From a virus, in IMG/VR virus record IMGVR_UViG_3300020185_000025, positions 1-64,000 of that record: 64,000 nt of DNA; one strand, given 5' to 3'. This document shows, in pieces, positions 6,197-20,425 of the stretch. Below the pieces are notes generated by a model. It was not told the DNA's origin. It worked only from the letters and a program-made list of their open reading frames with translations, and did no database searches. The position numbers were made by a program, and so were the translations under genes. Position 1 is the stretch's first letter. Every line of letters starts with the position of its first letter.

Positions 6197-6475
6197 TTAA
6201 CCAATAACCTTTTCAGCCAAAGGAGCATCAGGATTTGTTGTGTCAACAGAAACTTCTTCCTCACCAACCCCTTCAGGTTGCTTTGGACCTTTCTGTCTTA
6301 GGAATGCTTCGATTTTATTTCTCAGCATACCTACACCGGCCATCTCTTGTCCTTGGAATCCACCACGCTGTGATACTACATCAATAATTTGTAGCAGCGT
6401 TGACAGATCACTAAGATTGATAACCACTTCTTGTTCCTGGCCTTGGCCATTTTGTGATACGTCATTCATATTCAT
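6197..6475 (-). CDS. hypothetical protein
   Basis: ORF coupled to gp45 stop. Confidence 0.7.
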   Translation of the reverse strand: MNMNDVSQNGQGQEQEVVINLSDLSTLLQIIDVVSQRGGFQGQEMAGVGMLRNKIEAFLRQKGPKQPEGVGEEEVSVDTTNPDAPLAEKVIG

Positions 6476-7137
6476 TACCTTTTCTTATAAGTCGACTTTG
6501 AATCTATAGCCACGTAATACGTGACACCTTCGCCTTTAAACTCTGAGATACCTTTTGAACAAAGAGTAACATCATAGTCTATTGGCATTAGTTTCAAGTT
6601 ATCAGTTTTAATGATAATCTTGAACTCATCGGCAGTTTCCCCAATTTCAACGCCAAAGTCATCTGCGTTGTCGTTGGCACTGTCGATTGCTTTCAGATAA
6701 CATTTGCCGCCTTCGCCTACAAATGCAATCTCTGAAAATTGTAATACCCCTGCTGCCTTCAATACAGAAGACAATGTATCCGCCGTCACCGATACTTCAA
6801 CATCTGCTGAAGGAATAGTAATATCCTTTTCAGGTGGAGTATGGATCATGGATAAGTCGGCAAAAACATACTTGGTACGTCTTTTACCTTCTGATATAAT
6901 AAAGTATTTATCAAAAAACTCTACATCAGGATCATTATACAGAGATAAAATTGACAAAAATCTTGATAGATCATAAACACATGCATCAGAAGGGATTTCC
7001 TGTGATATGTTTGCGATCGCAATTAGAGTCTTCTCTGGAGTTATAGTCTTAATTACATTACCTTTTGCCAACAAGATTGACTTGTTGATGGAGGTAAAGC
7101 TTTTTAGGACCGTCAAGGTTTCGTTAGAAAATTTCAT
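6475..7137 (-). CDS. gp45: sliding clamp
   Basis: MKFSNETLTVLKSFTSINKSI, YDLSRFL, YYVAID. Confidence 0.93.
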   Translation of the reverse strand: MKFSNETLTVLKSFTSINKSILLAKGNVIKTITPEKTLIAIANISQEIPSDACVYDLSRFLSILSLYNDPDVEFFDKYFIISEGKRRTKYVFADLSMIHTPPEKDITIPSADVEVSVTADTLSSVLKAAGVLQFSEIAFVGEGGKCYLKAIDSANDNADDFGVEIGETADEFKIIIKTDNLKLMPIDYDVTLCSKGISEFKGEGVTYYVAIDSKSTYKKR

Positions 7138-7173
7138 TATATAAATTTCTCCATTTTAGTTATATTGTTGTAT

Positions 7174-7202
7174 ATTATAACAGGTTTATTTAGATTTGTC
7201 AA
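7174..7202 (-). promoter_or_regulatory. sigma70 promoter (gp45)
   Basis: TTGACA-N17-TATAAT; -35 lies inside upstream gene end. Confidence 0.85.
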
Positions 7203-8055
7203 TAGGATCATAAGCTTTTTTGTTAGATTTCTTATCCGCGGTAGCAGTTACACCTAATTGACCGAGAGCTCCCATGTCACCCTTAAAGATATAAGAACCA
7301 ACATGGTTGAGTTTCATCCAAGGACACATCCATACTGAAATGTCGGCTTTACGAGCCATCTTACAGAAGAAGTAATCTTCGGACAAGTACCTTCTTGACT
7401 CTGGGTCAATGACACAATCAAAGAAAGCATGTATATCTCGAGTACCGTCAAATTGTTCCGTTCTAACGTGGTCAGGTTTATATGCAAGTTCAGGATAAGC
7501 ATCTCGATATCTTTCGAGAGCATCTCTTGTGATTAACATAAACCCAGTACCACCTTCGGCAACTTCAACAGGTTCTGCGAGTTTAAATTGTTTTATATCT
7601 CCAACAGGATTAAAAACAAAATCTGATGTAAATTTTTCTAGGTCAAACGGATTCTCTTTGCCTACTCCACTTTGAGCAGCAGCAGATACCTTTTCCCATG
7701 CAATTGTCTTTTTAGGATATGGTCCACAAACGACATCGTATTTTTCAGGATCTGAAATCTGTAATGCAAGTAATGCCAAAGCATCTCTTGGATCAAATCC
7801 AATGTCTGCATCAATAAACAATAAGTGAGTACAGTCAGACCGTAAGAATTCATCTACGATATAGTTTCTTGCTCTTTGTATTAAACTCTCATTGAATAGA
7901 AAGTAATACTTCATTGGTATTTTGTGAGATGAACATAACATACTTAAATCATTAGTTGACTTAGTATATACTCCAGTACACTGACCACCATACATAGGTG
8001 TACCAATAAAGAGTCTTTGTTTTTGTAGTTCTTCTGTTTTTACTTCAAGCTTCAT
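7186..8055 (-). CDS. GT-A fold glycosyltransferase-like protein
   Basis: TPMYGG, LLFIDADI (DxD), GTGFMLI, LSEDYFFC. Confidence 0.75.
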   Translation of the reverse strand: MKLEVKTEELQKQRLFIGTPMYGGQCTGVYTKSTNDLSMLCSSHKIPMKYYFLFNESLIQRARNYIVDEFLRSDCTHLLFIDADIGFDPRDALALLALQISDPEKYDVVCGPYPKKTIAWEKVSAAAQSGVGKENPFDLEKFTSDFVFNPVGDIKQFKLAEPVEVAEGGTGFMLITRDALERYRDAYPELAYKPDHVRTEQFDGTRDIHAFFDCVIDPESRRYLSEDYFFCKMARKADISVWMCPWMKLNHVGSYIFKGDMGALGQLGVTATADKKSNKKAYDPIDKSK

Positions 8056-8690
8056 ACTGTAATTTGCTCCATATCATTTTCGGCTCTTGTGATTGATTGT
8101 AGTCTTAAGACATCAGCTAATATATCCCATGCCGAATCATGAGCTTTAAATACTGATTCCCATTTATCTTCGTTTGCACATGGAGGGAATCCATTCTTTT
8201 TAAGACCAAAGTCAAACTTTGCATCAATAAAAGTTCTTGTATCTCTAACTGTCCAATGTTTTAAATGGGATTGTAGATGGCCTACTTTACCTTGAGACTT
8301 AAATAGTCTTTCAAGTATAACAGGATCAAATGAATTAGATCTTGACCACCAAAAGTCAATCTTAGGTCCGTCAATTAAAAAATCTGTAAATTGTTTTACG
8401 AATTCTTCAACAGAAAGATCTGAACTCTTTGGAGCAATATTCTTTCTTACTTCTGAATCTTGTTTTGACCAAAAGTCGAGAGTACCTTTATCAACTACCC
8501 AATCGTAGTTCTTTACTTGCTCTGCTACATTCAATTTAAATTTCTTTGTCTTGAATACATCGCCTAAATTGTAGGGATCATCTGATGTAAACTTATCCCA
8601 CTGAAAAACCATGACTGACATATCAATCACGGCGCAGTTGTGGACATCTTGTCCCATTGTTTCGAAGTCGATGATTAAGTCGTTTCTCAT
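8052..8690 (-). CDS. dexA: 3'-5' exonuclease, DexA-like (DEDDh)
   Basis: LIIDFET, NSFDPVIL, RDTRT, HDSAWD. Confidence 0.8.
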   Translation of the reverse strand: MRNDLIIDFETMGQDVHNCAVIDMSVMVFQWDKFTSDDPYNLGDVFKTKKFKLNVAEQVKNYDWVVDKGTLDFWSKQDSEVRKNIAPKSSDLSVEEFVKQFTDFLIDGPKIDFWWSRSNSFDPVILERLFKSQGKVGHLQSHLKHWTVRDTRTFIDAKFDFGLKKNGFPPCANEDKWESVFKAHDSAWDILADVLRLQSITRAENDMEQITV

Positions 8691-8715
8691 AGTTTTACCT
8701 TTAATTTAATATACT

Positions 8716-8744
8716 ATTATAACAAACATTGCACCGCTTGTCAA
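8716..8744 (-). promoter_or_regulatory. sigma70 promoter (dexA)
   Basis: TTGACA-N17-TATAAT. Confidence 0.85.
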
Positions 8745-8749
8745 TAGTT

Positions 8750-9976
8750 TTATCCAAAGAATTCTTCCAAGTTTGGAGTTGTATCAGTTCCATTAGGATC
8801 GTATTCCATAAGTTGTTTCAAATTGTTCTGTCTTAAGTATGTTGTATTTGATAGTTCAAGATCGCCTGTTAGAAACTTACTAATTTCCAAATGCATATCT
8901 CTTGATGTTGGTACAGGACAATTCTGAGCAATATGATTCATCTTCTTTAATCCATCAAGCAACTCAAAATTTTCTGGGAATCCCATCATATGTAATGCTT
9001 CACGAATTGTTAATGAACGTTCTTCAGTAGGATGCATTGTGTCAACCATATTACGACCAATCACAGCATTCATATATTCACCAAAGACATGTACTGAACC
9101 ATCCCATACACCTTTGCCATCAGCAAACTTCATAATTGCATGGTCAGAATATTTAATACCTTTTTCGTTTCCTGTTTTGTGGAACCATTCGTTTGCTTCT
9201 TTCATCCAACCTTTCTTACAAACATAATTCAGAGTTGTCTTAACATTCTCTTCAATCATAAGTTCACGAACTTCACGATTTGTTTTTGTCTTAATAAAAT
9301 TGTAATAAGGTTCATCAGGAACATTCTTATTAATAATCAGATCTTGATGTAAAGCGTTTTCAGGAATCTCTTGAAGATATTCAGCAAAATCTTTTCTATC
9401 ACGATTATAATAATTCATAACTGGTGCAGATTCTGATTTCCAACCAATCGCAAATGATCTGTCTCTACCTTGTGGTACTCCATGAAATCTTGTAGAAGTT
9501 TTAAACAATGTTAATGAGTATCCTCTTTCTTTACAAATTTCGTAAAGTTTGTTTGCTACAGGACGTCCTTTGTTTGTAAACAGTGCAGGAGCATTCTCAA
9601 CAATGACTACCTTTGCTCCAAGAACATCAATACCATTTTCAAATACCATATACATAAAGTCGTTCTTTGCACAACCTGCTCCTTTTGATTCAGCGGTCGT
9701 TCCTGTATTCAGTTGAGATAACGCAGCACAAGGTGGAGTACCTGTGACTACATCAACTTGTTTAATATTAGGATTCTCTGAATCTAATAATACATAAGGA
9801 ATATCTTTTCTGCCTAAAGTATTTTGTTGATAGTTTACGTAATGACTATCATTAGCTTCAAATCCGCCAAAAGAGTAAATAGCTTCTGGTGGTTTACCAA
9901 ACGCCTTCTCTGCTCCTAAAGCTTGCCCACCAATAAGTGGAATAAGTGGTGCCCATGTTATTTCTTTTTTGTTCAT
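8750..9976 (-). CDS. C5-cytosine DNA methyltransferase homologue with atypical motif I
   Basis: GTPPC (IV), ENAP (VI), PQGRDR (VIII), TIREALHMMGFP (IX), QNCPVP (X); motif I reads LIPLIGG. Confidence 0.75.
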   Translation of the reverse strand: MNKKEITWAPLIPLIGGQALGAEKAFGKPPEAIYSFGGFEANDSHYVNYQQNTLGRKDIPYVLLDSENPNIKQVDVVTGTPPCAALSQLNTGTTAESKGAGCAKNDFMYMVFENGIDVLGAKVVIVENAPALFTNKGRPVANKLYEICKERGYSLTLFKTSTRFHGVPQGRDRSFAIGWKSESAPVMNYYNRDRKDFAEYLQEIPENALHQDLIINKNVPDEPYYNFIKTKTNREVRELMIEENVKTTLNYVCKKGWMKEANEWFHKTGNEKGIKYSDHAIMKFADGKGVWDGSVHVFGEYMNAVIGRNMVDTMHPTEERSLTIREALHMMGFPENFELLDGLKKMNHIAQNCPVPTSRDMHLEISKFLTGDLELSNTTYLRQNNLKQLMEYDPNGTDTTPNLEEFFG

Positions 9977-11232
9977 CCGAAAAAGTCCTCAAGTGTTGCA
10001 GCTACTTTCTTTTCAAATTGCGTTACATCAGGTGCAACATAATCAGTATCCATCGCTGTCATTATTTTATTGTTTAAGAAAGTACCATCATAATATTCTG
10101 GTTTACATATTAATTTACGTAAACCTTTAATTACAGATTCATACTCATCCTCATTATTTAATAACCTAATCATCCTTTCTTTAAATTCAGCAGGAGTCTT
10201 CGGTCTTAAAAAATCTGGTATTGGCAAATGCCCTTGTTCATCATAAGATGGATGTAAGAACGGTATCACACCAGCATGTACCATTTCAATATACTTTGAA
10301 GTTACCCAACCTTTTGCGATTGGAATAATAAAAGTAAACTTAACATTATTCATTTTAGCCATTACATCGTCAAGATGAATGGATCCTTTAAACCTTGCGT
10401 CGGTTTCAGTATTAGGATGTTCCCATTTACCGTAAATCTCAACGTTGTCAATATCATCAAGTACCCATTCTTTTAATAAGTTATATCTTGAAGGCTTTGC
10501 TTCATTCAATATAACCATAAATGGTAACCTGCGATTTAAATTAAATTGTTCTGAATGTTGATAGTTAATACAGAAGCAAGTTTCCATACCTGCATATGTT
10601 GAAGGTACCTTTCTTTCGTATCTGTTTTGATCTTCATAATCTTTAATACTACTTACTGTATATTCATAATCATATTGACCTAACGATACAGTTGGTAAAT
10701 GGAATATGTCTCTTGATTGATTCATAACATATCTTGGATCATTTACGATTTCAACATAAGGTGGTTGTTCTTCATTTAACCAAATAGAAATTGGTGAAGT
10801 ATAATTCTTTGTCATATCAATAACAGATGCAGGTTTACCATCAGTGACACCATCTTTTAAATGTTTCACCTGAGTAATTTTATCTGGGATCGTAACCGTA
10901 CCAACTTGACCAACCATCATAACAGTATAATCTAACTTGAATCCTTTCTGACCAAAGTAATTAAAGATATGACGATAGAAATTATCAGTACCATCATTCT
11001 TAATACCTTTCCAAATATCAATGACATTATTATATGGAAACAGCTCTAATTCTTCAGCCTCAGTTAGAGTACTGAAATCAGATCTTCCGATAATGTAAAA
11101 TGTTTTGTCTGGGTTATTATTTGCGAGTGCAATTAAAACTGTAGATGGTTCGTTGTCTCCACCAATAGGAGAGAAACGATTCCGTTTGAACTTGACCGAT
11201 TTACCGATCTTTCCGAAGCCAATGTTTTTCAT
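9973..11232 (-). CDS. putative DNA glycosyltransferase (GT-B, beta-glucosyltransferase-like)
   Basis: EIVNDPR, VEIYGKW, FKGSIH, WVTSKYIEMVHAGVIPF resembling the GT-B donor-binding C-domain; clamp-binding-like tail. Confidence 0.6.
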   Translation of the reverse strand: MKNIGFGKIGKSVKFKRNRFSPIGGDNEPSTVLIALANNNPDKTFYIIGRSDFSTLTEAEELELFPYNNVIDIWKGIKNDGTDNFYRHIFNYFGQKGFKLDYTVMMVGQVGTVTIPDKITQVKHLKDGVTDGKPASVIDMTKNYTSPISIWLNEEQPPYVEIVNDPRYVMNQSRDIFHLPTVSLGQYDYEYTVSSIKDYEDQNRYERKVPSTYAGMETCFCINYQHSEQFNLNRRLPFMVILNEAKPSRYNLLKEWVLDDIDNVEIYGKWEHPNTETDARFKGSIHLDDVMAKMNNVKFTFIIPIAKGWVTSKYIEMVHAGVIPFLHPSYDEQGHLPIPDFLRPKTPAEFKERMIRLLNNEDEYESVIKGLRKLICKPEYYDGTFLNNKIMTAMDTDYVAPDVTQFEKKVAATLEDFFG

Positions 11233-11259
11233 AATATAAAATAATTCCGTTCTGTAAAT

Positions 11260-11694
11260 TTATTTATTAGAATCGACCACACGCTTGCGAAGCTCTGTGG
11301 AACTGAAGGAATGCCTTCTTCGATTATAATGTACAGGACACAAACCTTTTCCTGTATGTTCTTGATCTTTGTATTCTTCACCAACAATACGAATGTCAGG
11401 ATTGATTGTAAGAATCATATCAACGATTTCTTGTTCTGTAGAAAACGGTATTACCTCGTCTACATATTTACAAGATGATACTTGTATGTATCTTTCAAAA
11501 GGAGTCTGAATCGGCTTGTTCTTTGCGTCAGGACGATCTACGGTTGGGTCTGTTAATAATCCAACAATTAAATAATCACACATCGACTTTGCTTCTTGTA
11601 GCATAACGATATGACCTGCATGAAATAAATCAAAAGTTGAACATGTAAAGCCAACCTTTGCGCCTTCCGGCAATAGTGTTCTATCAAGAAACAT
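11260..11694 (-). CDS. cytidylyltransferase (TagD/RfaE-like)
   Basis: TFDLFHAGH (HxGH), YLIVGL, SCKYVDEV, SFSSTELR. Confidence 0.88.
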   Translation of the reverse strand: MFLDRTLLPEGAKVGFTCSTFDLFHAGHIVMLQEAKSMCDYLIVGLLTDPTVDRPDAKNKPIQTPFERYIQVSSCKYVDEVIPFSTEQEIVDMILTINPDIRIVGEEYKDQEHTGKGLCPVHYNRRRHSFSSTELRKRVVDSNK

Positions 11695-12601
11695 ATCTAT
11701 TCTCCTCTTTTAATAATTCTTCAACAGCTTTTGCATACTGTGTATATAATGGTTCTTTATCAATTGGTAAGTAATGTATATATGCAGGAATCTTTTTAAG
11801 CTTCTTTACATCTTTCATTATTGTTGTCCATATACGAACATCACTACCAAATCTATCAGGTGCATAACCATTTTCATCAAGCCATTTATAATAGATGGCA
11901 TATATGTTTTGTTCTATGCACCAATACTTGCCACCCATACTTCTGTTGTTCTTTGCCGTACCATAAGCTGGTATGACTGAACCACCATAACCTTTTTTAT
12001 TCTTATACTTATATACACCATCCATGATAAGTATATATGTATCTTTACAAACTGCTCTTTGTAAGAACTCAAGATAATGTTCATTCTTACTATGTATTAC
12101 CTGTCCTGAGTTCATACTGAAATAAGGTTCTTTTCTCATGACTGATATATCAACTAAATCTTTATATAATGGAGATAAAGCTGACTCAACAAATTTACCC
12201 ATAACACCTAATGCAGATTCATTATAGAATACATACTCACTAAAGAAATAATGATCGAGCGGTTTAAGTAATAATACATCGTCGTCCATCATCATTGCTC
12301 TTTGGATATTAAGTACTTCATGTACATACGGAAAGACCAACCATTTAATTGCGACTCCGTATGAATCGAGAATCTTTAACAAATACTCTTCATCAAAGAA
12401 ATGCTTTGTTTTCTCAATCACATCAGTAGCATAATGTATATCAACTGAGTTTTCTATTGAATCTATATTATAAGTCGTTTTCCTATTATCTAGGATAACA
12501 TGTAAGCGTTGACATGTATCTTCTCCGTACACATTATAATACTTAAGAAGATTTTCAATTCTTTCAACTTTATTGCTTACTATGAATATGTCATTGTGCA
12601 T
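11684..12601 (-). CDS. putative GT-A glycosyltransferase
   Basis: MMMDDDVLLLKPLD (DxD), MNSGQV, EQ and late His as in GT8-like enzymes. Confidence 0.5.
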   Translation of the reverse strand: MHNDIFIVSNKVERIENLLKYYNVYGEDTCQRLHVILDNRKTTYNIDSIENSVDIHYATDVIEKTKHFFDEEYLLKILDSYGVAIKWLVFPYVHEVLNIQRAMMMDDDVLLLKPLDHYFFSEYVFYNESALGVMGKFVESALSPLYKDLVDISVMRKEPYFSMNSGQVIHSKNEHYLEFLQRAVCKDTYILIMDGVYKYKNKKGYGGSVIPAYGTAKNNRSMGGKYWCIEQNIYAIYYKWLDENGYAPDRFGSDVRIWTTIMKDVKKLKKIPAYIHYLPIDKEPLYTQYAKAVEELLKEENRYVS

Positions 12602-13631
12602 AATTAATCATGTCCAGTAAATCGTTTACGCATTGAAGAATAAAGTCTTTATCAGGATGATACTTGTAAACTCTAATTACTTCAGCTGCGACTAAGGTAA
12701 GTAAATCGTATTTGTCTATCCAATGATTATATGCCAACAGTGTATTAATAGCCAGATCTTGTTCGGCCGTACTGTAATGATTAATCATCAGACTTGCTAT
12801 GAATTTTGCTATGTCAAGTTCACGACAGCCAAATACATTAGGAATAGGATCAATTAAGAACAATTTGTCTTCATTAAACAACATGTTCTTAACACCAAAA
12901 TCTCCATGACAATAACCGTATTCCAATTCGATTGTTGCCATCTTTTCAATTACTTCTTTAAATGGTTCAAGTTCTGCTAATTGAGCATGACTTGCTATTC
13001 TTGCGATATAATCATCAAAGGTTAGAAACTTATTTTGTTTAATAGTATCCAATCCATCAAGAGATTCTTGAATCATTGCCAAAGCTTTATAAGGATGATC
13101 TGAAAAATAGTTTGGATCGTTTTTAATATAATCCATTGTAAGTGTATCACCTACAACTCTGTGAATCGTTGGAGTATTAACAACAGAACCGGTTTCTTCA
13201 AACCACTTTGCGGCTTCATGAGCGTTTCTTGCCGTCTTATGTACTACATTGCCATCAGTATAGATATCAGAACCTGAGAGACCACCTTCTAGTTCTCTTA
13301 TATCAGTTTCTATAAAATCTTCAGGAGTAATACCTTTATCATCAACATAATATGCTGCAAGTGGTTTATCAAAAGACAGAGCATGATATTTTACATGATG
13401 TCTTTCTAACCAAGCTTCAATTTGTGGACCATACTTATTTGCTGCTTCGACTCTACTCCTACAAGAAATAGAACCACGAGCAGTAAAGATATCAACGATC
13501 CAACCAGAATCGTATAACTTATTACACTTTTCTATAAGGGCAAGATTTGGCTTTGCATTTTCCCAATCTCTGTTGGAGGTATATGCAAGCGTATCGTCAA
13601 AGTCGAGTACAATTCTTTTATGCATCGACAT
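12591..13631 (-). CDS. HAD phosphatase fused to APH/choline-kinase-like phosphotransferase
   Basis: N-term LDFDDTL, FTARG, KP..YYVDDK; C-term GGLSGS, HGDFGVKN, LIDP. Confidence 0.8.
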   Translation of the reverse strand: MSMHKRIVLDFDDTLAYTSNRDWENAKPNLALIEKCNKLYDSGWIVDIFTARGSISCRSRVEAANKYGPQIEAWLERHHVKYHALSFDKPLAAYYVDDKGITPEDFIETDIRELEGGLSGSDIYTDGNVVHKTARNAHEAAKWFEETGSVVNTPTIHRVVGDTLTMDYIKNDPNYFSDHPYKALAMIQESLDGLDTIKQNKFLTFDDYIARIASHAQLAELEPFKEVIEKMATIELEYGYCHGDFGVKNMLFNEDKLFLIDPIPNVFGCRELDIAKFIASLMINHYSTAEQDLAINTLLAYNHWIDKYDLLTLVAAEVIRVYKYHPDKDFILQCVNDLLDMINYAQ

Positions 13632-13632
13632 C

Positions 13633-13833
13633 TTAATCTCTCTTTAGAATAGATCTTGTTAATCCACCAAAGAGGTACATGAAGTAAACAAAGAAAGGCA
13701 CTGCGATAGCAAGTCTAATTGTATCGTTGGCCAAGCCAATTAATTCCATACCTGAAATAAGGACAAACATAATACCGATGATTCCACCAGTAACGCCAAT
13801 TCCATAACCTAGATCTTTTAATTTTTCGTTCAT
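13633..13833 (-). CDS. small membrane protein
   Basis: Two hydrophobic segments. Confidence 0.6.
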   Translation of the reverse strand: MNEKLKDLGYGIGVTGGIIGIMFVLISGMELIGLANDTIRLAIAVPFFVYFMYLFGGLTRSILKRD

Positions 13834-13857
13834 AATATATCCTTTTAAATAATAGCT

Positions 13858-13886
13858 ATTATATCAAACTTTTGGGTCATTGTCAA
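13858..13886 (-). promoter_or_regulatory. sigma70 promoter heading the 13833-8750 operon
   Basis: TTGACA-N17-TATAAT. Confidence 0.85.
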
Positions 13887-14332
13887 TGGTTTGTTCCATT
13901 TAAAAAGTGAACATCAACATTTGCTTCATCAAACATCCTTCTTGATTTTTCAAATGAATCTAACCACTTCTGTGGTATATCATCCATTGACATTACGATT
14001 TTATTTATGCCAACTTGAATAATTCCTTTTGCACAATCATGGCAAACTGGTAATCCAAAGACATATAGAGTTGCATCTTTTAACGAAATACCATTGAAGG
14101 TAGCATTATATATGCAATTCATTTCAGCATGAACAACCAAATCATATTTGATTGATCTGTCTTCATAACGTTCAGGTATATCTTCAATTCCTTTCGGAAA
14201 TCCATTATACCCAGTTGCTAGGATACGACGGTCAGAGTTAACTGCCACCGCACCTATTTGTTTTGAAGGATCCTTACTCCAAGTAGAGATCTCTCGGGCA
14301 ACACGCATAAAGCGGTAATCCCATTTATCCAT
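13883..14332 (-). CDS. cd: dCMP deaminase
   Basis: SKDPSKQIGA, TGYNG, HAEMN, PVCHDC. Confidence 0.92.
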   Translation of the reverse strand: MDKWDYRFMRVAREISTWSKDPSKQIGAVAVNSDRRILATGYNGFPKGIEDIPERYEDRSIKYDLVVHAEMNCIYNATFNGISLKDATLYVFGLPVCHDCAKGIIQVGINKIVMSMDDIPQKWLDSFEKSRRMFDEANVDVHFLNGTNH

Positions 14333-14990
14333 TCTGCATTAACTCCTCAATAAACTCAAAATGTCTTTCGTATACATGGAAGTTAGATGCTGTCCAAATT
14401 AACTGACCAACCTCAACTCCAAGCTCAGTTGCTAATTGTTGCTGAACAAACCTTGCCCAGGCATAATCATTGTTATAACCAAAGACCGCATCGTTAGAAC
14501 GCATAAGATAATGTGATTCTAATTGACCATCTCGAATATAAAATGTATTAGCATAAGTACACATAAAGTCACTCATACCATCACGGTTATAATCAAGGTG
14601 CATACCAGGACGATTATAAATCATCGTAGCACGACGGCTGTTTGGATTATTTCTCAACTCTCGAAGTACATGGCTATATTGATTTCCATTCTCTTCTGAG
14701 TAAATACACCAACCATAATTAGAATTAATCTTACCTTCGTTAGAAGAGATTGATTTCCATATCTGTGGTGTTTCTCCAGGAATATCATCAACATATAATG
14801 ATTGAGACTTATACCATTCCAATTCACGTTCAATGTACTTATATGCTGGTTTACGAATTACATAATCTTCATCAGCATTAAAAGTTGCACCAATAATCTC
14901 GATGGTCTTTACACCAGTTTTATCAATAACAAAATCTTCTGCAAGATACTTGTCCATGATATAAGCTCGAATATCAGTTACGTTGTTCAT
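14325..14990 (-). CDS. gp42: dCMP hydroxymethylase (thymidylate-synthase fold, gp42-like)
   Basis: INSNYG, DFMCT, MRSNDAVFGYNNDYAW with Asp at the dCMP-specificity position. Confidence 0.82.
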   Translation of the reverse strand: MNNVTDIRAYIMDKYLAEDFVIDKTGVKTIEIIGATFNADEDYVIRKPAYKYIERELEWYKSQSLYVDDIPGETPQIWKSISSNEGKINSNYGWCIYSEENGNQYSHVLRELRNNPNSRRATMIYNRPGMHLDYNRDGMSDFMCTYANTFYIRDGQLESHYLMRSNDAVFGYNNDYAWARFVQQQLATELGVEVGQLIWTASNFHVYERHFEFIEELMQNG

Positions 14991-15244
14991 TAGATGGTTT
15001 CCATTAATGCTTCAATATCAGATACTTCAGCAACGAGATCTGAAACGTTTTGATTGTGGAAGGCTCTTGCGGTTTTGCGGAGAATTGATTTTGGGATCTG
15101 AACTTCTTCAGCCAAAGCATTGATTGCTTCTTTTTGAAAATCACGTTCTGATTCCATTCTTGTAAAAGAATTACTCATTTCTTCCATGCAACCACGGATG
15201 CGTTTTTTGTCTTCGTCGCTCGAAGGTAGTATCACATTACTCAT
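14990..15244 (-). CDS. small dsDNA-binding protein (DsbA/GapR-like)
   Basis: Helical E..RD..KEAI..LAEE..IPKSILRK pattern. Confidence 0.55.
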   Translation of the reverse strand: MSNVILPSSDEDKKRIRGCMEEMSNSFTRMESERDFQKEAINALAEEVQIPKSILRKTARAFHNQNVSDLVAEVSDIEALMETI

Positions 15245-15588
15245 TATTTAGTACTCCTGTTAAATACATCTTTAGTTGAATCCTGACCTTTAATACCTTT
15301 ACGACAGTAAGAGACAAAGAAACTTGAATAGTTAATTAAATCTTTTGCTGAATCTTCAAGGGATTCAAAGTTAGGATCATAATCATCCGACTGCATTGCT
15401 TCCATTACAGATTTCATACGTAGCATTTTTGCATGCATGATATCATGAATGGTCGTAATTCCGTTAGGATAGTAGTCGGCTTGTTGAACTGTCGAGTTTG
15501 GATTTTGATAATCTCTCGACTTTTTCAATTGAAGGTCAACGCACTCTTGCAGTACATCAACCGAAACTGGGTTAACCTGTTTGGTCAT
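15244..15588 (-). CDS. nucleotide-modification-associated domain 1 protein (DUF1599-like, MazG-related)
   Basis: LKKSRDY...KMLR...ESLEDSAKDLINY. Confidence 0.7.
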   Translation of the reverse strand: MTKQVNPVSVDVLQECVDLQLKKSRDYQNPNSTVQQADYYPNGITTIHDIMHAKMLRMKSVMEAMQSDDYDPNFESLEDSAKDLINYSSFFVSYCRKGIKGQDSTKDVFNRSTK

Positions 15589-15612
15589 AGTTTACTCCAT
15601 AATAAAAAATAT

Positions 15613-15641
15613 ATTATATCAAAGATCTCTGATAATGTCAA
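15613..15641 (-). promoter_or_regulatory. sigma70 promoter
   Basis: TTGACA-N17-TATAAT. Confidence 0.85.
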
Positions 15642-16107
15642 TAGGAACTTCGTATTTTAAGAAAAGATTTGTCATCTCTGGTGAAAGCTTGTCTGATTCG
15701 TTGTAGGTAAATGACCACGTAACATAATCAGATTTAGCACTCCTGTTATCAAAGTAATCAAAGAATACATCGTGTGGTATAACTGAAACTCTATAATCGG
15801 AATCTTGTACACCTGACGCATCTACCAAAGCAACCCAGTCACAGTGTCCTTTTTTCTCTCTAAGACTCCATGCACCTAATTTGCCATTGGTTGGTTTGTT
15901 TGCTGTTTTGACTTCAATTCGACCAGGATATCTTGTTTTACCAAGAACATCGAATTTACCGTTAACTGATTCGCCTTCGGTAAGGTTGACGACCTTAGAT
16001 TCACCCATCGTTCCAATCAGTGATTTGTAGAGGTCGTCAACTCCACTTAATTGTCCTTTTTGATGTTTATATAAAGCCCTTTCAAGTAATACCGTCAAGT
16101 GGTCCAT
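15619..16107 (-). CDS. putative PD-(D/E)XK endonuclease
   Basis: GE...FDV...IEVKT motif order. Confidence 0.6.
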   Translation of the reverse strand: MDHLTVLLERALYKHQKGQLSGVDDLYKSLIGTMGESKVVNLTEGESVNGKFDVLGKTRYPGRIEVKTANKPTNGKLGAWSLREKKGHCDWVALVDASGVQDSDYRVSVIPHDVFFDYFDNRSAKSDYVTWSFTYNESDKLSPEMTNLFLKYEVPIDIIRDL

Positions 16108-16136
16108 AATGTATCCATTAATTTAATTTATAAACA

Positions 16137-16165
16137 ATTATAATCTATATCATAAAGAATGTCAA
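16137..16165 (-). promoter_or_regulatory. sigma70 promoter (endonuclease)
   Basis: TTGACA-N17-TATAAT. Confidence 0.85.
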
Positions 16166-16182
16166 TGGTTTATTTCATTTAT

Positions 16183-16269
16183 TTAGAGAACTTTTCTCCA
16201 AACGTTCTGAATTCTACCTCTTTTCATGAATTTGTGAAAAGTTTTGTATTGTTGTTTAATGTATTGCAT
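16183..16269 (-). CDS. 28-aa basic peptide (not in ORF track)
   Basis: MQYIKQQYKTFHKFMKRGRIQNVWRKVL*; AAGGG SD-like; fills the intergenic gap. Confidence 0.45.
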   Translation of the reverse strand: MQYIKQQYKTFHKFMKRGRIQNVWRKVL

Positions 16270-16351
16270 AGTTTTCCCTTCTGTTTCCTAAATGTTGCAC
16301 GAATGTAACATATAAAATTATATATAAGGAAAACCTAACAGTATCAATAAT

Positions 16352-16579
16352 TTATACGACTTTTGGTGGAACAGGTACTACAAACGTTCTTACTGTTGCT
16401 AATTTGTCTTCAGCTTCAGCAAGTTTTGATACTTCAGCATCAAGAGTCTCAACAGTACCAGGATGTTCTGCTACTCCAACTCCACTTTCTAAAAATACCG
16501 CGATGTTTGCTGTATGCTCCGCAATTTGCGCTTCATACTTTGAAATCAAGGCATTTACTAATATTTCTCTAAGTGCCAT
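16352..16579 (-). CDS. conserved phage hypothetical protein
   Basis: GVGVAEHP motif; SD AGGAG. Confidence 0.7.
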   Translation of the reverse strand: MALREILVNALISKYEAQIAEHTANIAVFLESGVGVAEHPGTVETLDAEVSKLAEAEDKLATVRTFVVPVPPKVV

Positions 16580-16580
16580 T

Positions 16581-16994
16581 TTATTCTCCTTTTAAGTTTG
16601 GTAGGATACCGTGATTGCCTTCATGAGATGGAGCCGTCCATCCTTCAGGTTTCATCAGATCAGGTAATCCTAGTGGGTTTGGCCTTCCTTCCTTTACTCC
16701 AGGTTCCTTGGCCATGTTTGCTTCGAGAACTGCGTCCCAAGCTTTATAAGGATCGACTCCGAAGGCATCAAGAGTACCGATTGCCACTACACAAAGGTCA
16801 ACTAAACCATCTACGATTTCTTCGGAGTCGATAACTTTTTGGGCTGTTCTTGTTTCGGTTAACTCTTCTTCTAAAAAGTCAACTCGAAAACGCAAGAACG
16901 CCTTCAACTGATTTATATCTGCGTTTTCAATCCAGTCATGTGTTTTATACTTTGACTGCATTTCATTAATGTCTTTAACCCAATCTTTACTCAT
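16581..16994 (-). CDS. MazG-like NTP pyrophosphatase (candidate dCTPase)
   Basis: LEEELTE, EIVDGLVDL, ANMAK, KPEGW; start at MSKDWV. Confidence 0.8.
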   Translation of the reverse strand: MSKDWVKDINEMQSKYKTHDWIENADINQLKAFLRFRVDFLEEELTETRTAQKVIDSEEIVDGLVDLCVVAIGTLDAFGVDPYKAWDAVLEANMAKEPGVKEGRPNPLGLPDLMKPEGWTAPSHEGNHGILPNLKGE

Positions 16995-17298
16995 TTGGAT
17001 ATCCTTGTGAAATATAAACGCCAATCATACCAATTTGGCCTTCTGTTAATTTTTGGGCAGTTGGATACATCATTACTGATTGTGGTCCAACCGGTTCACC
17101 TGCTTTGTATTTTAATAACTTACCAATAATATCATCAGCAGATTGTCCTTGAAGTTTAGGACCGATTCCACCTTGACCTTGTGAACCATGACAGGCAGCA
17201 CAAGTAACCATTGTTGGTCTGATATCAGCGAAACGATCTTCAGCCAATGCGACTGATGTCATTCCTAATAGAGCAGTTGTTAATAAAACGTTCTTCAT
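16987..17298 (-). CDS. c-type cytochrome (c553/c4-like)
   Basis: Signal peptide, CAACHG, GPKLQGQ, distal MM. Confidence 0.88.
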   Translation of the reverse strand: MKNVLLTTALLGMTSVALAEDRFADIRPTMVTCAACHGSQGQGGIGPKLQGQSADDIIGKLLKYKAGEPVGPQSVMMYPTAQKLTEGQIGMIGVYISQGYPNE

Positions 17299-17866: not shown

Positions 17867-20425
17867 TTAACTGAAAAAATCTTCAATCGTATTTACCTTT
17901 TCAGCCGACCATCCAACTGCGTCAAGTATTGATTGAATAGGACTTAAGAATACTTTATCAAATTGAAGTTCAGTATCTATATATTGATGCAGTCCTAATT
18001 GTTTTGGTAAAAGACCAGGAACCGATATTGCGTTTTCACGAATCGGATTAGGTACTTTCAAATATAATAGTTTGACCTTATCTCCAGCTTGGATAGTTTC
18101 AAACTTCTTATCAAGTCCTTTCTCTTTAAGGAACTGATTATACATCAAGGATCCACGAACATGCATTGGTGTACCTTTTCGATATACTGAGCTTTTGTCT
18201 TGATACTTTTTAAGTTCAGATACACCTGAAGTCTTTGCGATTTGAATAGGATCCAATTTACGAAAGTCTTCTTTGAATTCTTTAATGAATTCTTGAGTTG
18301 TTTCTTCGTCGGTATTCATAATCACTTCAAAACATTTCTTGAGTTTCTCTCGACAGATTTCTGGTGTTGAAGATCTGACTGATTCCAAACCGGTAACTGA
18401 GATCTTAGGAGTATCATAATGTACACCTTCAGAGTTCAATGTATTTAGAATATATCGTTTCTTGGCAACAAAAATACCACGGTGAGCAATCTTTTCACGT
18501 TTCATTACCATTGCATTACGATATGTACCAAGATCAGCAGCAAGCTTTTCATAACCGTCTTCGATGATTTGTTCTATCTTTGTAGAGCAAACTCTATCAA
18601 GGAACTCTTCACCTTTGTCTTTATCAATATCAGTCGTACCAAATACTTCTGTAATCAGAGGACCGAAGTCAACATAGATAGAGTCAGTATCAATATAAAT
18701 GATATAGTCAATGTCAGTTGTACCTAGAATTTTGTTTAGGTAATCATTCACTGATTTCTGAGCATAACGAATACTAAGCTGGCCGCTTGTTGTAATTGCC
18801 TCTGCCATTTCATTAATATAGTATAAGAAATATACGTTAGCAGTTGCACCATACAAACTATTCATGGCAATCTTAATTGACATTTGCGAGTTATGTAATT
18901 GGTTGATCTCTTTCTTGAGCCTTTTGAGTTCAAGTGGATCTTTTTCAATCTCAAACTGTTGTTCAGCTGCGATCATCTGCTTTTTAATGACAGAACGGTT
19001 ATTATAATATTCTTCAATGATTTCAGGAATGATTCCTAACTTCTTATTAGAAAAGCAAACACCATTAGCAGCAACGGAAACTCCGTTACGATCATTCTGA
19101 TATTCACCTTTGAGTACCATGTCCTGAGTTACGTATTCACGATCATCAGGCATATAGGTTTCTGGTGACATATTATATTGTAGCATCAAGTGAGGATATA
19201 GAGAGTTAAGGTCAAAAGATACAACCCAAGGATGCATACCGACCTTTGGATCTTTTACATAACCACCTACAAGATCTCCTGCTCTTTGACCAGGACCACC
19301 TTTTAATGGAGGAACAATTTTATCTGCCATAAGTTTACGATATATGGTTGCTTCCCATATACCAACCGTACCAAATGCATCACCGTAGTTTACACCACCA
19401 TCATAAGCAACTGTACATACCAACGCAAGTAATCCTGTCTCTTCTTCAAGACGAGCAATCAGTTGAGTATCTTTAAGGTTATAGTCCAAATATAATTGTG
19501 GATTCTCATCCCATAAACCAGTTAGAGAACCATATTCAGAGTAATCAATTTTCTTTTCACCAAGAACAACATAAGCAATATGATCTAACTTGTATGATTC
19601 TTGAGGACCATACTTATAACCAAACTTCTTGAAGCAATCCATATAGTCAATAACAGCAACACCCATAATAGAATATGTTGAATTGACTTTACCGAAAATT
19701 TCTCGAGATCTTTGTTTGATTGATTTATGTGGAGATAACCGTCTTGCAGTATCTTCTCCAAGTAATGCTATGATACGAGTTACGATGTATTGAATGTCAA
19801 AGTACTCAACGTTCCAACCTGTAACGATATCAGGATAATCAGTTGTCCAAAGTTTCATAAAGTATTGAAGCAAAGCACGTTCACCGTCTACTCCATCAAA
19901 TAAAACAAACTTAATCTTATCTTGAGGAATATCAGTAACTGTCTTTGTCTTGTCATAATCTTTACGACCGAGTACATAATAGATATCTTCTCGAGAACTA
20001 TGATAAGCAAGTGACGTAATAGGTTTATCAGCAGTTTCCATATTAGGATAACCATCACTGATGTCAACCTCAATATCAAACGATACGATATTGACTTGAC
20101 TTACATCATAGGTAATCTTGCCTGGGTATTCTTCTTGAATAAACTGAGTCACATAATTTGTTGAACCAAACGTCTTCATACCGTGAACACCTTTGTATTC
20201 TTCGATGAAGTTCTTTGCTTCTCGCATATCACCAAACTTATGTGGAGATACAGGTAAGTTACCTTCTAAAGAGCGATAACCTTCTTCTCCTGCTTTTGGA
20301 GTATGAACATATAGAGTAGGCTGAAATGGAACGCGATACGAAAAACGTTTACCATTTTCGTAACCTCGATGTAAAATATTGTTTCCGTATCTTTCAACGG
20401 ATGTATAGAATTTAGTCAATGCCAT
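17867..20425 (-). CDS. gp43: DNA polymerase (family B)
   Basis: FDIE exo I, SFDLNSLYP, KIAMNSLYG, YIDTDS; clamp-binding tail TIEDFFS. Confidence 0.97.
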   Translation of the reverse strand: MALTKFYTSVERYGNNILHRGYENGKRFSYRVPFQPTLYVHTPKAGEEGYRSLEGNLPVSPHKFGDMREAKNFIEEYKGVHGMKTFGSTNYVTQFIQEEYPGKITYDVSQVNIVSFDIEVDISDGYPNMETADKPITSLAYHSSREDIYYVLGRKDYDKTKTVTDIPQDKIKFVLFDGVDGERALLQYFMKLWTTDYPDIVTGWNVEYFDIQYIVTRIIALLGEDTARRLSPHKSIKQRSREIFGKVNSTYSIMGVAVIDYMDCFKKFGYKYGPQESYKLDHIAYVVLGEKKIDYSEYGSLTGLWDENPQLYLDYNLKDTQLIARLEEETGLLALVCTVAYDGGVNYGDAFGTVGIWEATIYRKLMADKIVPPLKGGPGQRAGDLVGGYVKDPKVGMHPWVVSFDLNSLYPHLMLQYNMSPETYMPDDREYVTQDMVLKGEYQNDRNGVSVAANGVCFSNKKLGIIPEIIEEYYNNRSVIKKQMIAAEQQFEIEKDPLELKRLKKEINQLHNSQMSIKIAMNSLYGATANVYFLYYINEMAEAITTSGQLSIRYAQKSVNDYLNKILGTTDIDYIIYIDTDSIYVDFGPLITEVFGTTDIDKDKGEEFLDRVCSTKIEQIIEDGYEKLAADLGTYRNAMVMKREKIAHRGIFVAKKRYILNTLNSEGVHYDTPKISVTGLESVRSSTPEICREKLKKCFEVIMNTDEETTQEFIKEFKEDFRKLDPIQIAKTSGVSELKKYQDKSSVYRKGTPMHVRGSLMYNQFLKEKGLDKKFETIQAGDKVKLLYLKVPNPIRENAISVPGLLPKQLGLHQYIDTELQFDKVFLSPIQSILDAVGWSAEKVNTIEDFFS

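Follow-up and report, generated by a model that had tools for sequence, protein, structure and literature searches.

What does a phage make when one block of its genes holds both a T4-like enzyme for modifying cytosine and the apparent means to activate a sugar of its own? This question is raised by a gene island in IMG/VR virus record IMGVR_UViG_3300020185_000025. The window analyzed here is the first 64 kb (positions 1 to 64,000) of this 88,997-base viral contig, and because CheckV places the completeness of the contig at 42%, the absence of a gene from it is weak evidence. The island lies between the genes for the gp45 sliding clamp (6475-7137; PF09116, 3e-13) and the gp43 DNA polymerase (17867-20425; PF00136 and PF03104). 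Its genes are real, tightly packed and, as a first-pass annotation had described them, co-oriented: every open reading frame (ORF) from gp43 to gp45 is on the minus strand, and their stops and starts overlap or abut. The phage, a marine T4-like myovirus, belongs only distantly to the T4 superfamily. A protein 98% identical to one encoded here occurs on a contig of 169,039 bases, and the full genome is put at about 169 kb. Its polymerase shares at most 44.6% identity with anything in 50,697 phage records, where the top matches are 'Phage C48C1' and Synechococcus myoviruses, and a near-identity DNA search of these records returned no near-identical island DNA, so that this collection contains no closely related cultured phage.

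We consider it probable that the island encodes a two-stage hypermodification of cytosine, in which 5-hydroxymethylcytosine (5hmC) is made and then decorated with a sugar that the phage activates, most likely a heptose. In the first stage, a gp42-type enzyme would turn dCMP into 5-hydroxymethyl-dCMP, the nucleotide pool would be shaped by a dCMP deaminase together with a MazG-like pyrophosphatase, and 5hmC would enter DNA during replication. In the second stage, an APH-like kinase domain would phosphorylate C1 of a host sugar phosphate, the HAD domain fused to it would take off the distal phosphate, and an RfaE-II/TagD-type enzyme would make the nucleoside diphosphate (NDP)-sugar, for which the contig 53 trio described below makes a heptose the likeliest candidate. 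A GT-B glycosyltransferase resembling T4 beta-glucosyltransferase (beta-GT) would transfer the sugar to 5hmC while held on the gp45 clamp by a polymerase-like tail, and a GT8-like enzyme, where present, would probably add a second sugar. A homologue of C5-cytosine methyltransferases (C5-MTases), tethered to the clamp in like manner, would work on this newly made DNA as well, and methylation of unreplaced cytosines is the simplest activity to propose for it. We infer every chemical step of this scheme, the identity of the sugar, the substrate of the methyltransferase homologue and any protective role from features that are observed directly, namely family and fold assignments, signature residues, synteny, the co-variation of C-terminal tails and a supporting complex model.

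That the phage makes its own activated donor and decorates modified cytosine with something other than plain glucose, possibly in several steps, had been proposed in the first-pass annotation. With 5hmC as the modified base, this is the best-supported reading by homology, because a gp42-type enzyme, a donor module, a beta-GT-like transferase and a GT8-like transferase that varies among strains are all encoded. What is new here is the coupling of the module to a pre-replicative gp42 route, the optional GT8-like transferase, and a C5-MTase homologue that in these islands is always beside the GT-B gene. The survival of phage DNA in the face of restriction enzymes, CRISPR nucleases and defenses that recognize modifications depends on glycosylated cytosines, and new sugar-base chemistries feed the enzyme tools used for epigenetic sequencing. 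By analogy with other phages, the modification proposed for this lineage might likewise serve an anti-restriction or anti-CRISPR role.

A probable route from cytosine to an activated sugar

The putative dCMP hydroxymethylase is a homologue of thymidylate synthase (TS) of 221 amino acids, encoded at 14325-14990 (PF00303, 4.9e-25). Residues 4-217 align to the T4 dCMP hydroxymethylase (PDB 1b49/1b5d, E 5.3e-74), and the protein is about 54% identical to gp42 homologues of T4-like phages. The stretch around its catalytic Cys (ThyA C146), SDFMCT, is the same in T4. The protein contains AVFGYNNDYAW, and the pattern MRSND..F..NDYAW is common to it and T4 gp42, and NNDYAW, with the Asp that had been placed at the dCMP-specificity site by the first reading, is in register. 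At three signature sites the window protein agrees with T4: ThyA L143 is replaced by Asp, N177 is replaced by Asp, and D169 is kept. According to Lee et al. (PMC13326640), Asp at N177 accounts for dCMP specificity and an acidic residue at L143 for water access, the TS homologues of phages RB69 and DLP3 are flavin-dependent 5-hydroxy-dCMP synthases, and Asn at ThyA 169 (D169N) is proposed as a diagnostic for synthases of 5-hydroxycytosine (5hoC). An RB69-type 5-hydroxy-dCMP synthase identity is ruled out for the window protein, which reads MRSND where RB69 gp48 reads MRSQN and is 28% identical to that protein. Because D169 is kept, T4 gp42 is matched and RB69 gp48 is this remote, we assign the TS homologue to the gp42-type hydroxymethylases, and the predicted base is 5hmC.

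The gene for the dCMP deaminase (13883-14332; PF00383, 3.3e-20; phrog_174, 4.7e-46) overlaps the 3' end of the TS-homologue gene. The MazG-like protein (16581-17024; PF01503, 5.8e-9; phrog_671, 1.3e-21) is a candidate dCTPase of the all-alpha NTP pyrophosphatase type. In Ochrobactrum phage ORM_20 its homologue (42% identity) has a dNMP kinase on one side and a TS homologue on the other, a gene setting that fits dCTP clearing but is no proof of it. The names that both proteins had received at first sight, like those of the C5-MTase homologue and the DexA-like exonuclease described below, hold up in profile searches. As called, the MazG-like ORF begins with a TTG at 17024 and overlaps the upstream cytochrome-c-like gene by 38 bases; its relatives in two IMG/VR loci (L011 and L021) are 137 amino acids long, and translation more likely begins at an ATG that lies ten codons further on (about 16994).

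Two genes make up the core of the donor module. One encodes a bifunctional protein of 346 amino acids (12591-13631) with an N-terminal HAD phosphatase domain and a C-terminal APH-like sugar kinase domain, which agrees with the HAD-kinase fusion recognized earlier. The HAD domain (residues 5-112) contains DFDDT and matches TIGR01689 (5e-17) as well as PDB entries 1xpj (3.2e-12) and 9iqw (1.5e-11); from its entry series and name, we take 9iqw to be AfhF of phage HY126. The same domain is 33% identical to RB69 gp51 (E 2e-15). The kinase domain (residues 217-301) carries HGDFGVKN...IDP, reaches PF01636 at 2.7e-4, just below the cut-off, and has weak choline-kinase and APH matches; its pairwise similarity to RB69 gp52 is not significant (best relevant segment, E 0.28). 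The other gene encodes a nucleotidyltransferase of 144 amino acids (11260-11694; PF01467, 3.4e-16). Among NCBIfam models, rfaE domain II (TIGR02199, heptose-1-phosphate adenylyltransferase, 2.7e-22) tops TagD (TIGR01518, 9.3e-15), both below their equivalog cut-offs. The initial description of this protein as a TagD-like cytidylyltransferase is therefore sound as to the PF01467 family, whereas TagD itself is outscored.

The bacterial ADP-heptose pathway (GmhA, HldE and GmhB) employs an anomeric kinase, a HAD-type distal phosphatase and an RfaE-domain-II nucleotidyltransferase. The window module follows the same logic as this pathway of Gram-negatives, but its kinase is APH-like rather than ribokinase-like, its kinase is fused to a HAD domain where HldE joins kinase and nucleotidyltransferase, and its family scores are sub-cut-off. 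GmhA was not found in the 89-kb contig.

The same architecture is present in contig 53 of a metavirome, for which Pyle et al. describe a HAD-like/APH-like bifunctional enzyme, a cytidylyltransferase and a T4-beta-GT-like GT-B (bioRxiv 10.1101/2023.12.21.572611). In this work, all three proteins were needed in Escherichia coli to yield mono-heptosyl and di-heptosyl 5hmC, the 5hmC being supplied by a heterologous methyltransferase and TET, and methyltransferases, gp45/clamp and APH proteins are listed among the neighbors of GT-B/ThyS contigs. Because a trio with this architecture has been reconstituted, the earlier statement that the gene combination is not a characterized pathway fails for the core trio, and the HAD domain is in addition homologous to AfhF and RB69 gp51. 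As described, contig 53 (subclass III) resembles the window in combining a HAD/APH enzyme, a cytidylyltransferase and a GT-B, with a sugar that is not a host-supplied NDP-sugar. The two differ in their source of 5hmC, which in contig 53 is made post-replicatively at GpC by a C5-methyltransferase and a TET-type dioxygenase, whereas the window encodes a pre-replicative gp42-type enzyme, with no Tet_JBP domain found in the 89-kb, 42%-complete contig. The window also differs in having a C5-MTase homologue without TET, clamp tails on both DNA enzymes and an optional GT8-like gene.

The predicted DNA glycosyltransferase, a GT-B protein of 419 amino acids encoded at 9973-11232, is assigned by fold match. 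Its AlphaFold2 (AF2) model, with a mean predicted local distance difference test (pLDDT) of 75, has T4 beta-GT (1bgt) as its best Foldseek PDB match (E 1.1e-8, TMt 0.67), and a glycosyltransferase of phage HY126 appears at rank 46 among the fold matches. The Pfam model for T4 beta-GT matches nothing in the 89-kb contig. Homologues of the GT-B occur in clusters that encode TS, HAD and nucleotidyltransferase-kinase proteins in Pseudoalteromonas phage XG4 (42% identity) and Enterococcus phage 9183 (30%). T4 itself resembles the window in its gp42 signature residues, dCMP deaminase, beta-GT-like fold and a transferase associated with gp45. However, T4 draws on host UDP-glucose, encodes no donor pathway and has no C5-MTase homologue.

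The strongest PDB matches of the nucleotidyltransferase are with cytidylyltransferases for ethanolamine-phosphate (3elb, 1.3e-23) and glycerol-3-phosphate (1coz, 5.6e-15). These matches would suit a donor that is a CDP-alcohol of the glycerol-, ribitol-, ethanolamine- or choline-phosphate type, in which case the presumed GT-B might add a phosphodiester-linked, teichoic-acid-like decoration to 5hmC. The weak choline-kinase and APH matches of the kinase point the same way, as does the naming of TIGR01689 for capsule biosynthesis phosphatases. Nevertheless, we regard a CDP-alcohol donor as very unlikely: rfaE domain II beats TagD in NCBIfam, the GT-B most resembles Leloir glycosyltransferases in fold, with T4 beta-GT first, and the trio of identical architecture gave heptosides, not phosphodiesters.

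The two-stage reading with a sugar as the decoration also accommodates an accessory gene. A protein of 305 amino acids (11684-12601) has no Pfam or NCBIfam match, and its AF2 model (pLDDT 87.5, built from a 17-sequence alignment) has a GT-A fold for which the top Foldseek matches are glycogenin, LARGE1 and the xyloside xylosyltransferase XXYLT1. The match to glycogenin (GT8) has an E value of 3.5e-7, a Foldseek probability of 1.00 and TM-scores of 0.41-0.49. A DDD sequence (DxD motif) and NSGQ..H are invariant in the 17 sequences. The first-pass annotation had counted two GT-A-like proteins and one GT-B-like protein; the GT-B and this GT-A are upheld by fold, while the other candidate, a protein of 289 amino acids discussed below, has sub-threshold Pfam matches only. 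The GT8-like gene overlaps both of its neighbors within the donor module. It is missing in four of the 22 near relatives of the island (L013-L016) and is present in 13 of the 35 loci of the second scan described below that hold both the kinase and the nucleotidyltransferase. Its overlap with donor-module genes and its variation between strains fit an optional transferase for a second sugar. We also considered whether a TET dioxygenase is hidden among the unassigned ORFs, and rejected this idea because the 305-amino-acid ORF folds as GT-A/GT8 and a Tet_JBP match is absent from the contig. Separately, a 253-amino-acid protein (P0020) on a 1,282-base ENA contig joins the first ~155 residues of the GT8-like protein (75% identity) to a SIS-like phosphosugar-isomerase stretch. 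It is either a possible chimera or a hint of an isomerase at the same spot in some relatives, and it is not used here as evidence.

Conservation and exchange of the donor cassette

Scanning IMG/VR with the HAD-kinase identified 26 loci, of which 22 are near relatives (72-100% identity) and four are distant. In this gene-neighborhood survey, of the kind that the first-pass annotation had suggested, each of the 22 near relatives has its genes in the same order as the window, up to the ends of its contig. The C5-MTase homologue served as the query of a second scan, which covered the best 80 of 158 relatives, all with at least 66% identity, and comprises 71 newly fetched loci, several of which share contigs with those found by the HAD-kinase. 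Dozens of IMG/VR contigs repeat this arrangement of the island.

Loci beyond the near relatives reveal other combinations. Locus L028 encodes a TS homologue (63% identity), the kinase, the nucleotidyltransferase, an SDR epimerase, a GT-B (38%) and a C5-MTase homologue (37%), and L027 has the kinase, nucleotidyltransferase and GT-B. Locus L029 instead contains Tet_JBP, TAGT, kinase and nucleotidyltransferase genes. The same set is found in L025, at 7775-9990 of a 145.5-kb T4-like marine contig (IMGVR_UViG_3300020383_000006), where a DexA-like gene precedes Tet_JBP, TAGT, kinase and nucleotidyltransferase, and gp43 follows. The kinase/nucleotidyltransferase cassette is therefore found with different 5hmC sources and transferases, namely TET and TAGT in L025 and L029 and TS and GT-B in L028.

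The L028 epimerase (11664-12671 of IMGVR_UViG_3300042268_000161) is an NAD-dependent NDP-sugar epimerase/dehydratase (PF01370, 5.9e-47) encoded between the nucleotidyltransferase and the GT-B, and its presence suggests further variation of the sugar. An identity as the heptose 6-epimerase HldD was considered, but its best NCBIfam model is GalE (2.1e-43), heptose_epim comes only fifth (1.5e-28), and these scores, all sub-cut-off, are uninformative on the sugar.

A sister clade (L089 and L095-L099) keeps the TS homologue (with RSND retained), deaminase, GT-B, C5-MTase homologue, DexA, the 289-amino-acid gene and gp45. Its donor module, however, is a fusion of PF00483 and APH domains together with a separate HAD protein, which is the architecture of AfhE and AfhF; PF00483 plus APH is seen in L095. 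Pseudoalteromonas phage vB_Psh_XG4, the one cultured phage found to have the core of TS homologue, GT-B and C5-MTase homologue, likewise encodes a TS homologue (RSCD), HAD, a nucleotidyltransferase-kinase of 559 amino acids, the GT-B homologue, a second glycosyltransferase and a C5-MTase homologue (49% identity). In Enterococcus phage 9183, genes for TMP kinase, TS, dUTPase, HAD and a nucleotidyltransferase-kinase accompany the GT-B homologue. Because the sister clade and XG4 swap the donor module yet keep the TS, GT-B and C5-MTase genes, these gene contents indicate that the donor cassette is exchangeable and that the TS homologue, GT-B and C5-MTase homologue are the stable core of the lineage. 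The donor module is, on this evidence, a portable cassette that is combined with TS- or TET-based sources of 5hmC and can be replaced by an Afh-type cassette.

This exchange bears on the identity of the sugar. Gram-negative hosts make arabinose-5-phosphate for Kdo, and the window kinase and HAD domain could act on this host metabolite, so that the sugar would be a pentose such as the arabinose of the RB69/HY126 Afh system, or some other sugar, rather than a heptose. The Afh system (RB69, DLP3 and HY126) resembles the window in several ways (PMC13326640): the phages are T4-like, a TS homologue is encoded near the polymerase, GT-B transferases act on DNA, and a kinase, HAD phosphatase and nucleotidyltransferase follow one another in the same logic. 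The HAD domain of the window is homologous to AfhF-type phosphatases, as noted above for RB69 gp51 and 9iqw, and both the sister clade and XG4 combine the TS/GT-B/C5-MTase core with an AfhE-like nucleotidyltransferase-kinase and a separate HAD. Furthermore, the heptose obtained with the contig 53 proteins was drawn from the metabolite pool of E. coli and not from that of the natural host.

Despite these points, we judge a pentose or other non-heptose sugar to be unlikely. The window nucleotidyltransferase is of the PF01467 type, with rfaE domain II as its best model, and it belongs to another family than the PF00483-type domain that is fused to the kinase in AfhE; in the window, by contrast, the kinase is fused to HAD and the nucleotidyltransferase is separate. 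The kinase lacks significant similarity to RB69 gp52. As described, the sole reconstituted system of the same architecture gave heptose even though E. coli holds arabinose-5-phosphate. The Afh phages encode an arabinose-5-phosphate isomerase, whereas none, and no SIS isomerase at all, was found in the 42%-complete window contig. As a system, Afh also differs from the window in its base, 5hoC, for which the phages use a flavin-dependent TS homologue with D169N (PMC13326640); the window protein keeps D169 and is gp42-like.

A different alternative is that the sugar genes serve as auxiliary metabolic genes, altering host lipopolysaccharide (LPS) or other surface glycans, perhaps for superinfection exclusion, and are mere neighbors of a plain T4-like hmC pathway. 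A survey of pelagimyophages took phage rfaE and GT8 genes as O-chain modification genes (PMC7029224). This alternative would also agree with the lack of a clamp tail on the GT8-like and 289-amino-acid proteins, and with the finding that the latter occurs in phages without hmC genes. However, we consider it most improbable, because the hydroxymethylase/deaminase genes on one side and the gene for the clamp-tailed GT-B on the other enclose the donor genes in tight translational packing, the module recurs beside TET plus TAGT and beside TS in unrelated phages, the GT-B resembles T4 beta-GT and bears a polymerase tail, and the same trio modifies DNA in E. coli according to the description of contig 53.

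The 289-amino-acid protein (7186-8055; phrog_1574, 7.8e-57) had been included in the pathway as GT-A-like, and one Atlas cluster, at rank 19, is named nucleotide-diphospho-sugar transferase. Homologues occur in Stenotrophomonas phage DLP6, Sinorhizobium phages phiM7, M19 and N3, an Ochrobactrum phage, the Synechococcus cyanophage ACG-2014f and the pelagiphage HTVC027P. In DLP6 the homologue is just upstream of DsbA and the sliding clamp, and hmC genes are not nearby. Because of this setting, we conclude that the gene is probably a conserved neighbor of the clamp and replication module and not part of the island. Its constant position, immediately upstream of the gene for the clamp in distant T4-like phages (this lineage and DLP6), hints at a replication-linked role.

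Predicted clamp-binding tails and a methyltransferase homologue

Both DNA-modifying enzymes of the window end like its polymerase. The C-termini are TIEDFFS in gp43, TLEDFFG in the GT-B and NLEEFFG in the C5-MTase homologue, which together read [IL]E[DE]FF[GS]. Among the 333 ORFs of at least 40 amino acids in six frames, the tail pattern [LIVM][DE][DE]F[FLMIW].? ends these three only; over 2000 shuffles of the tails, matches averaged 0.0165 and never numbered three. The donor enzymes and the GT8-like and 289-amino-acid proteins have no clamp-type tail. The association of a DNA glycosyltransferase with the clamp has a precedent, because T4 alpha-GT, but not beta-GT, co-purifies with gp45 (PMC13216743). 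The available text of that paper makes no mention of a C-terminal tail.

The tails also co-vary with the cognate polymerase between lineages. In L021, the polymerase ends in TLDDFFS, the GT in TLEDFFA and the methyltransferase homologue in NLDEFFA. In L025, where a TAGT glycosyltransferase takes the place of GT-B, it ends in SKVESVSLF and the polymerase in EEEQVSLF. The L027 GT-B ends in SLEDFFI, and the sister-clade enzymes end in GLESFFG or TLEEF[LMI]x. The last two residues of GT-B and C5-MTase homologue alike are DW in L028, and the polymerase end is outside that locus. DNA-modifying enzymes of three families (GT-B, TAGT and C5-MTase-like) thus appear from their sequences to bear the clamp-binding tail of their own polymerase.

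A structural model of gp45, the predicted docking partner, supports this interpretation. When three copies of gp45 were modeled with residues 365-408 of the C5-MTase homologue, the complex scored 0.62, and the best of three controls scored 0.00. That mark is reached by 58 of 80 solved complexes and by 2 of 110 mismatched pairs; the model used its own alignments and three clamp copies, unlike the calibration. Its runs agree in at least 41% of contacts, with a partner pLDDT of at least 43. The confident contacts join tail residues 398-404 and 406-408 to gp45 residues 35-39, 102-109, 176-180, 196-197 and 208-214. These results support binding of the tail to gp45. A broader and rather doubtful possibility is that in these marine T4-like phages several modifying enzymes form a 'modification train', each carried along on the clamp by a polymerase-like tail.

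Several points weigh against the two-stage scheme as a whole. There is a solved structure of a clamp with a bound peptide from a T4-like phage, and the pass of the complex model may reflect likeness to it; the tail pattern, moreover, was written after the tails had been seen. No nucleoside chemistry was found for the window phage or any relative. The link to heptose is one of shared architecture and sub-cut-off family scores, and contig 53 was compared by its description. In the 89-kb contig, there is no SIS or SIS_2 isomerase (PF01380 and PF13580, whose controls matched in 14 of 14 and 13 of 14 genomes), no Tet_JBP domain, and no dNMP kinase with the ORM_20 protein as the query, although an empty answer from a search of this last kind is uninformative. 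The best PDB match of the MazG-like protein is weak (DR2231, E 0.0047) and its dCTPase role is putative. The GT-B model has 46 residues below pLDDT 50, with TM-scores to beta-GT of 0.5-0.67. Lastly, complete replacement of cytosine by 5hmC would leave a C5-methyltransferase without an obvious substrate.

Because of this last difficulty, we propose that the simplest role of the C5-MTase homologue is mop-up methylation, in which the enzyme would ride the clamp and methylate cytosines that escaped replacement. The protein has 408 amino acids (8750-9976; PF00145, 2.8e-23), and its gene adjoins that of the GT-B in 65 of the 71 loci of the second scan; the GT-B is present in every locus whose upstream DNA exceeds 1.4 kb. 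In five sequences from the window to cyanophage S-TIM5 (31% identity), the C5-METHYLTRANSFERASE homologue has invariant TPPC (with the catalytic Cys), ENAP, HGVPQxRxR, HPTExR and QNxPV stretches, which in the window read TPPC, ENAP, PQGRDR, HPTEER..REAL..GFP and QNCPVP. We take these to be motifs IV (PC), VI (ENV), VIII (QxRxR), IX and X of the C5-MTases. In place of FxGxG, the canonical motif I for binding S-adenosylmethionine (SAM), the window has IPLIGG, which aligns to SGVGG of 3g7u.

An alternative is that the protein is not a plain methylase but uses covalent catalysis by its Cys at C6 of 5hmC or glycosyl-5hmC in nascent DNA, with the substituent at C5 being swapped or taken off, which would yield a further, undescribed cytosine derivative. 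SAM-free C5-MTases can act on 5hmC in vitro, and the invariance of the catalytic Cys, ENAP and QxRxR stretches while motif I reads IPLIGG would fit such an activity. The acidic residue aligned to motif II is Glu in the window and Trp in XG4 and L028, and the gene accompanies a dCMP-specific (N177D) TS homologue in four lineages, namely the window family, L028, XG4 and S-TIM5. We find this alternative rather doubtful, however, because all family members have IPLIGG/IPLVGG, even the stand-alone S-TIM5 gene, so that this sequence is not tied to the hmC context. The S-TIM5 homologue has no glycosyltransferase beside it, which makes ordinary methylation the simpler explanation. Under either activity, a C5-methyltransferase homologue that is fixed in genomes whose C5 position is predicted to be occupied already is, like the tails, a testable sequence-level lead.

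Cyanophage S-TIM5 (NC_019516) also has an annotated thymidylate synthase 2.4 kb from its C5-MTase homologue (L103, 3757-4593 and 6977-8194). This TS homologue has Asp at the ThyA N177 site (ARSND...VPLD) and is probably dCMP-specific, which suggests that S-TIM5 DNA carries a modified cytosine.

Occurrence and remaining genes of the stretch

Fourteen metagenome runs labeled marine or seawater, from five studies (2014-2024), contain 0.87-0.94 of the words sampled from the region at 9973-13631, which makes the island near-identical in marine metagenomes of all five studies. One of the runs may be the source sample of the contig itself. Four runs with a small share (X17-X20, one freshwater and one 'aquatic') are left out of this habitat statement. 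In two of the 14 runs, DNA contigs cover all 30 bins of 7000-17100. Metatranscriptome contigs from two runs cover 22 and 25 of the 30 island bins, but they are strandless and could derive from DNA carry-over, so we do not use them as evidence of expression. If the scheme is true, heptose-type or other non-glucose decoration of 5hmC would occur in an abundant, recurrent marine phage lineage, where before it was represented by a reconstituted metavirome fragment only.

Several further genes lie between the clamp and polymerase. A small membrane protein of 66 amino acids (13633-13833), whose sole Pfam match is below the cut-off, is conserved in position, being kept between the deaminase and the HAD-kinase in relatives with 50-100% identity. 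The DexA-like 3'-5' exonuclease is encoded at 8052-8690 (PF16473, 8e-19; phrog_255, 1.8e-33), and a DsbA-like dsDNA-binding transcription factor at 14990-15244 (phrog_639, 4.1e-13; PF11126, 4.6e-4, below the cut-off). The small protein at 15244-15588 had been called DUF1599/Nmad1-like. Its Pfam score falls below the cut-off (PF07659, E 0.024), and the weak assignment draws instead on phrog_18404 (1.8e-13), a profile matched at positions 171-258 by this protein and at positions 52-139 by the MazG-like protein.

The ORF of 162 amino acids at 15619-16107 had been named an endonuclease in the first-pass annotation, a name that finds no backing, as the ORF matches no family in Pfam, PHROGs or NCBIfam. 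It shows the pattern of an indel: some of the near relatives lack it, and L007-L011 have another ORF of 167-181 amino acids in its place. A DNA contig from one marine run (X13) joins position 15590 to 16114, skipping 523 bases in this region.

At the polymerase side of the island, the ORF at 16987-17298 encodes a cytochrome-c-like protein of 103 amino acids with a signal-peptide-like N-terminus and a CxxCH heme motif (PF00034, 3e-5), which is odd in a phage replication region.

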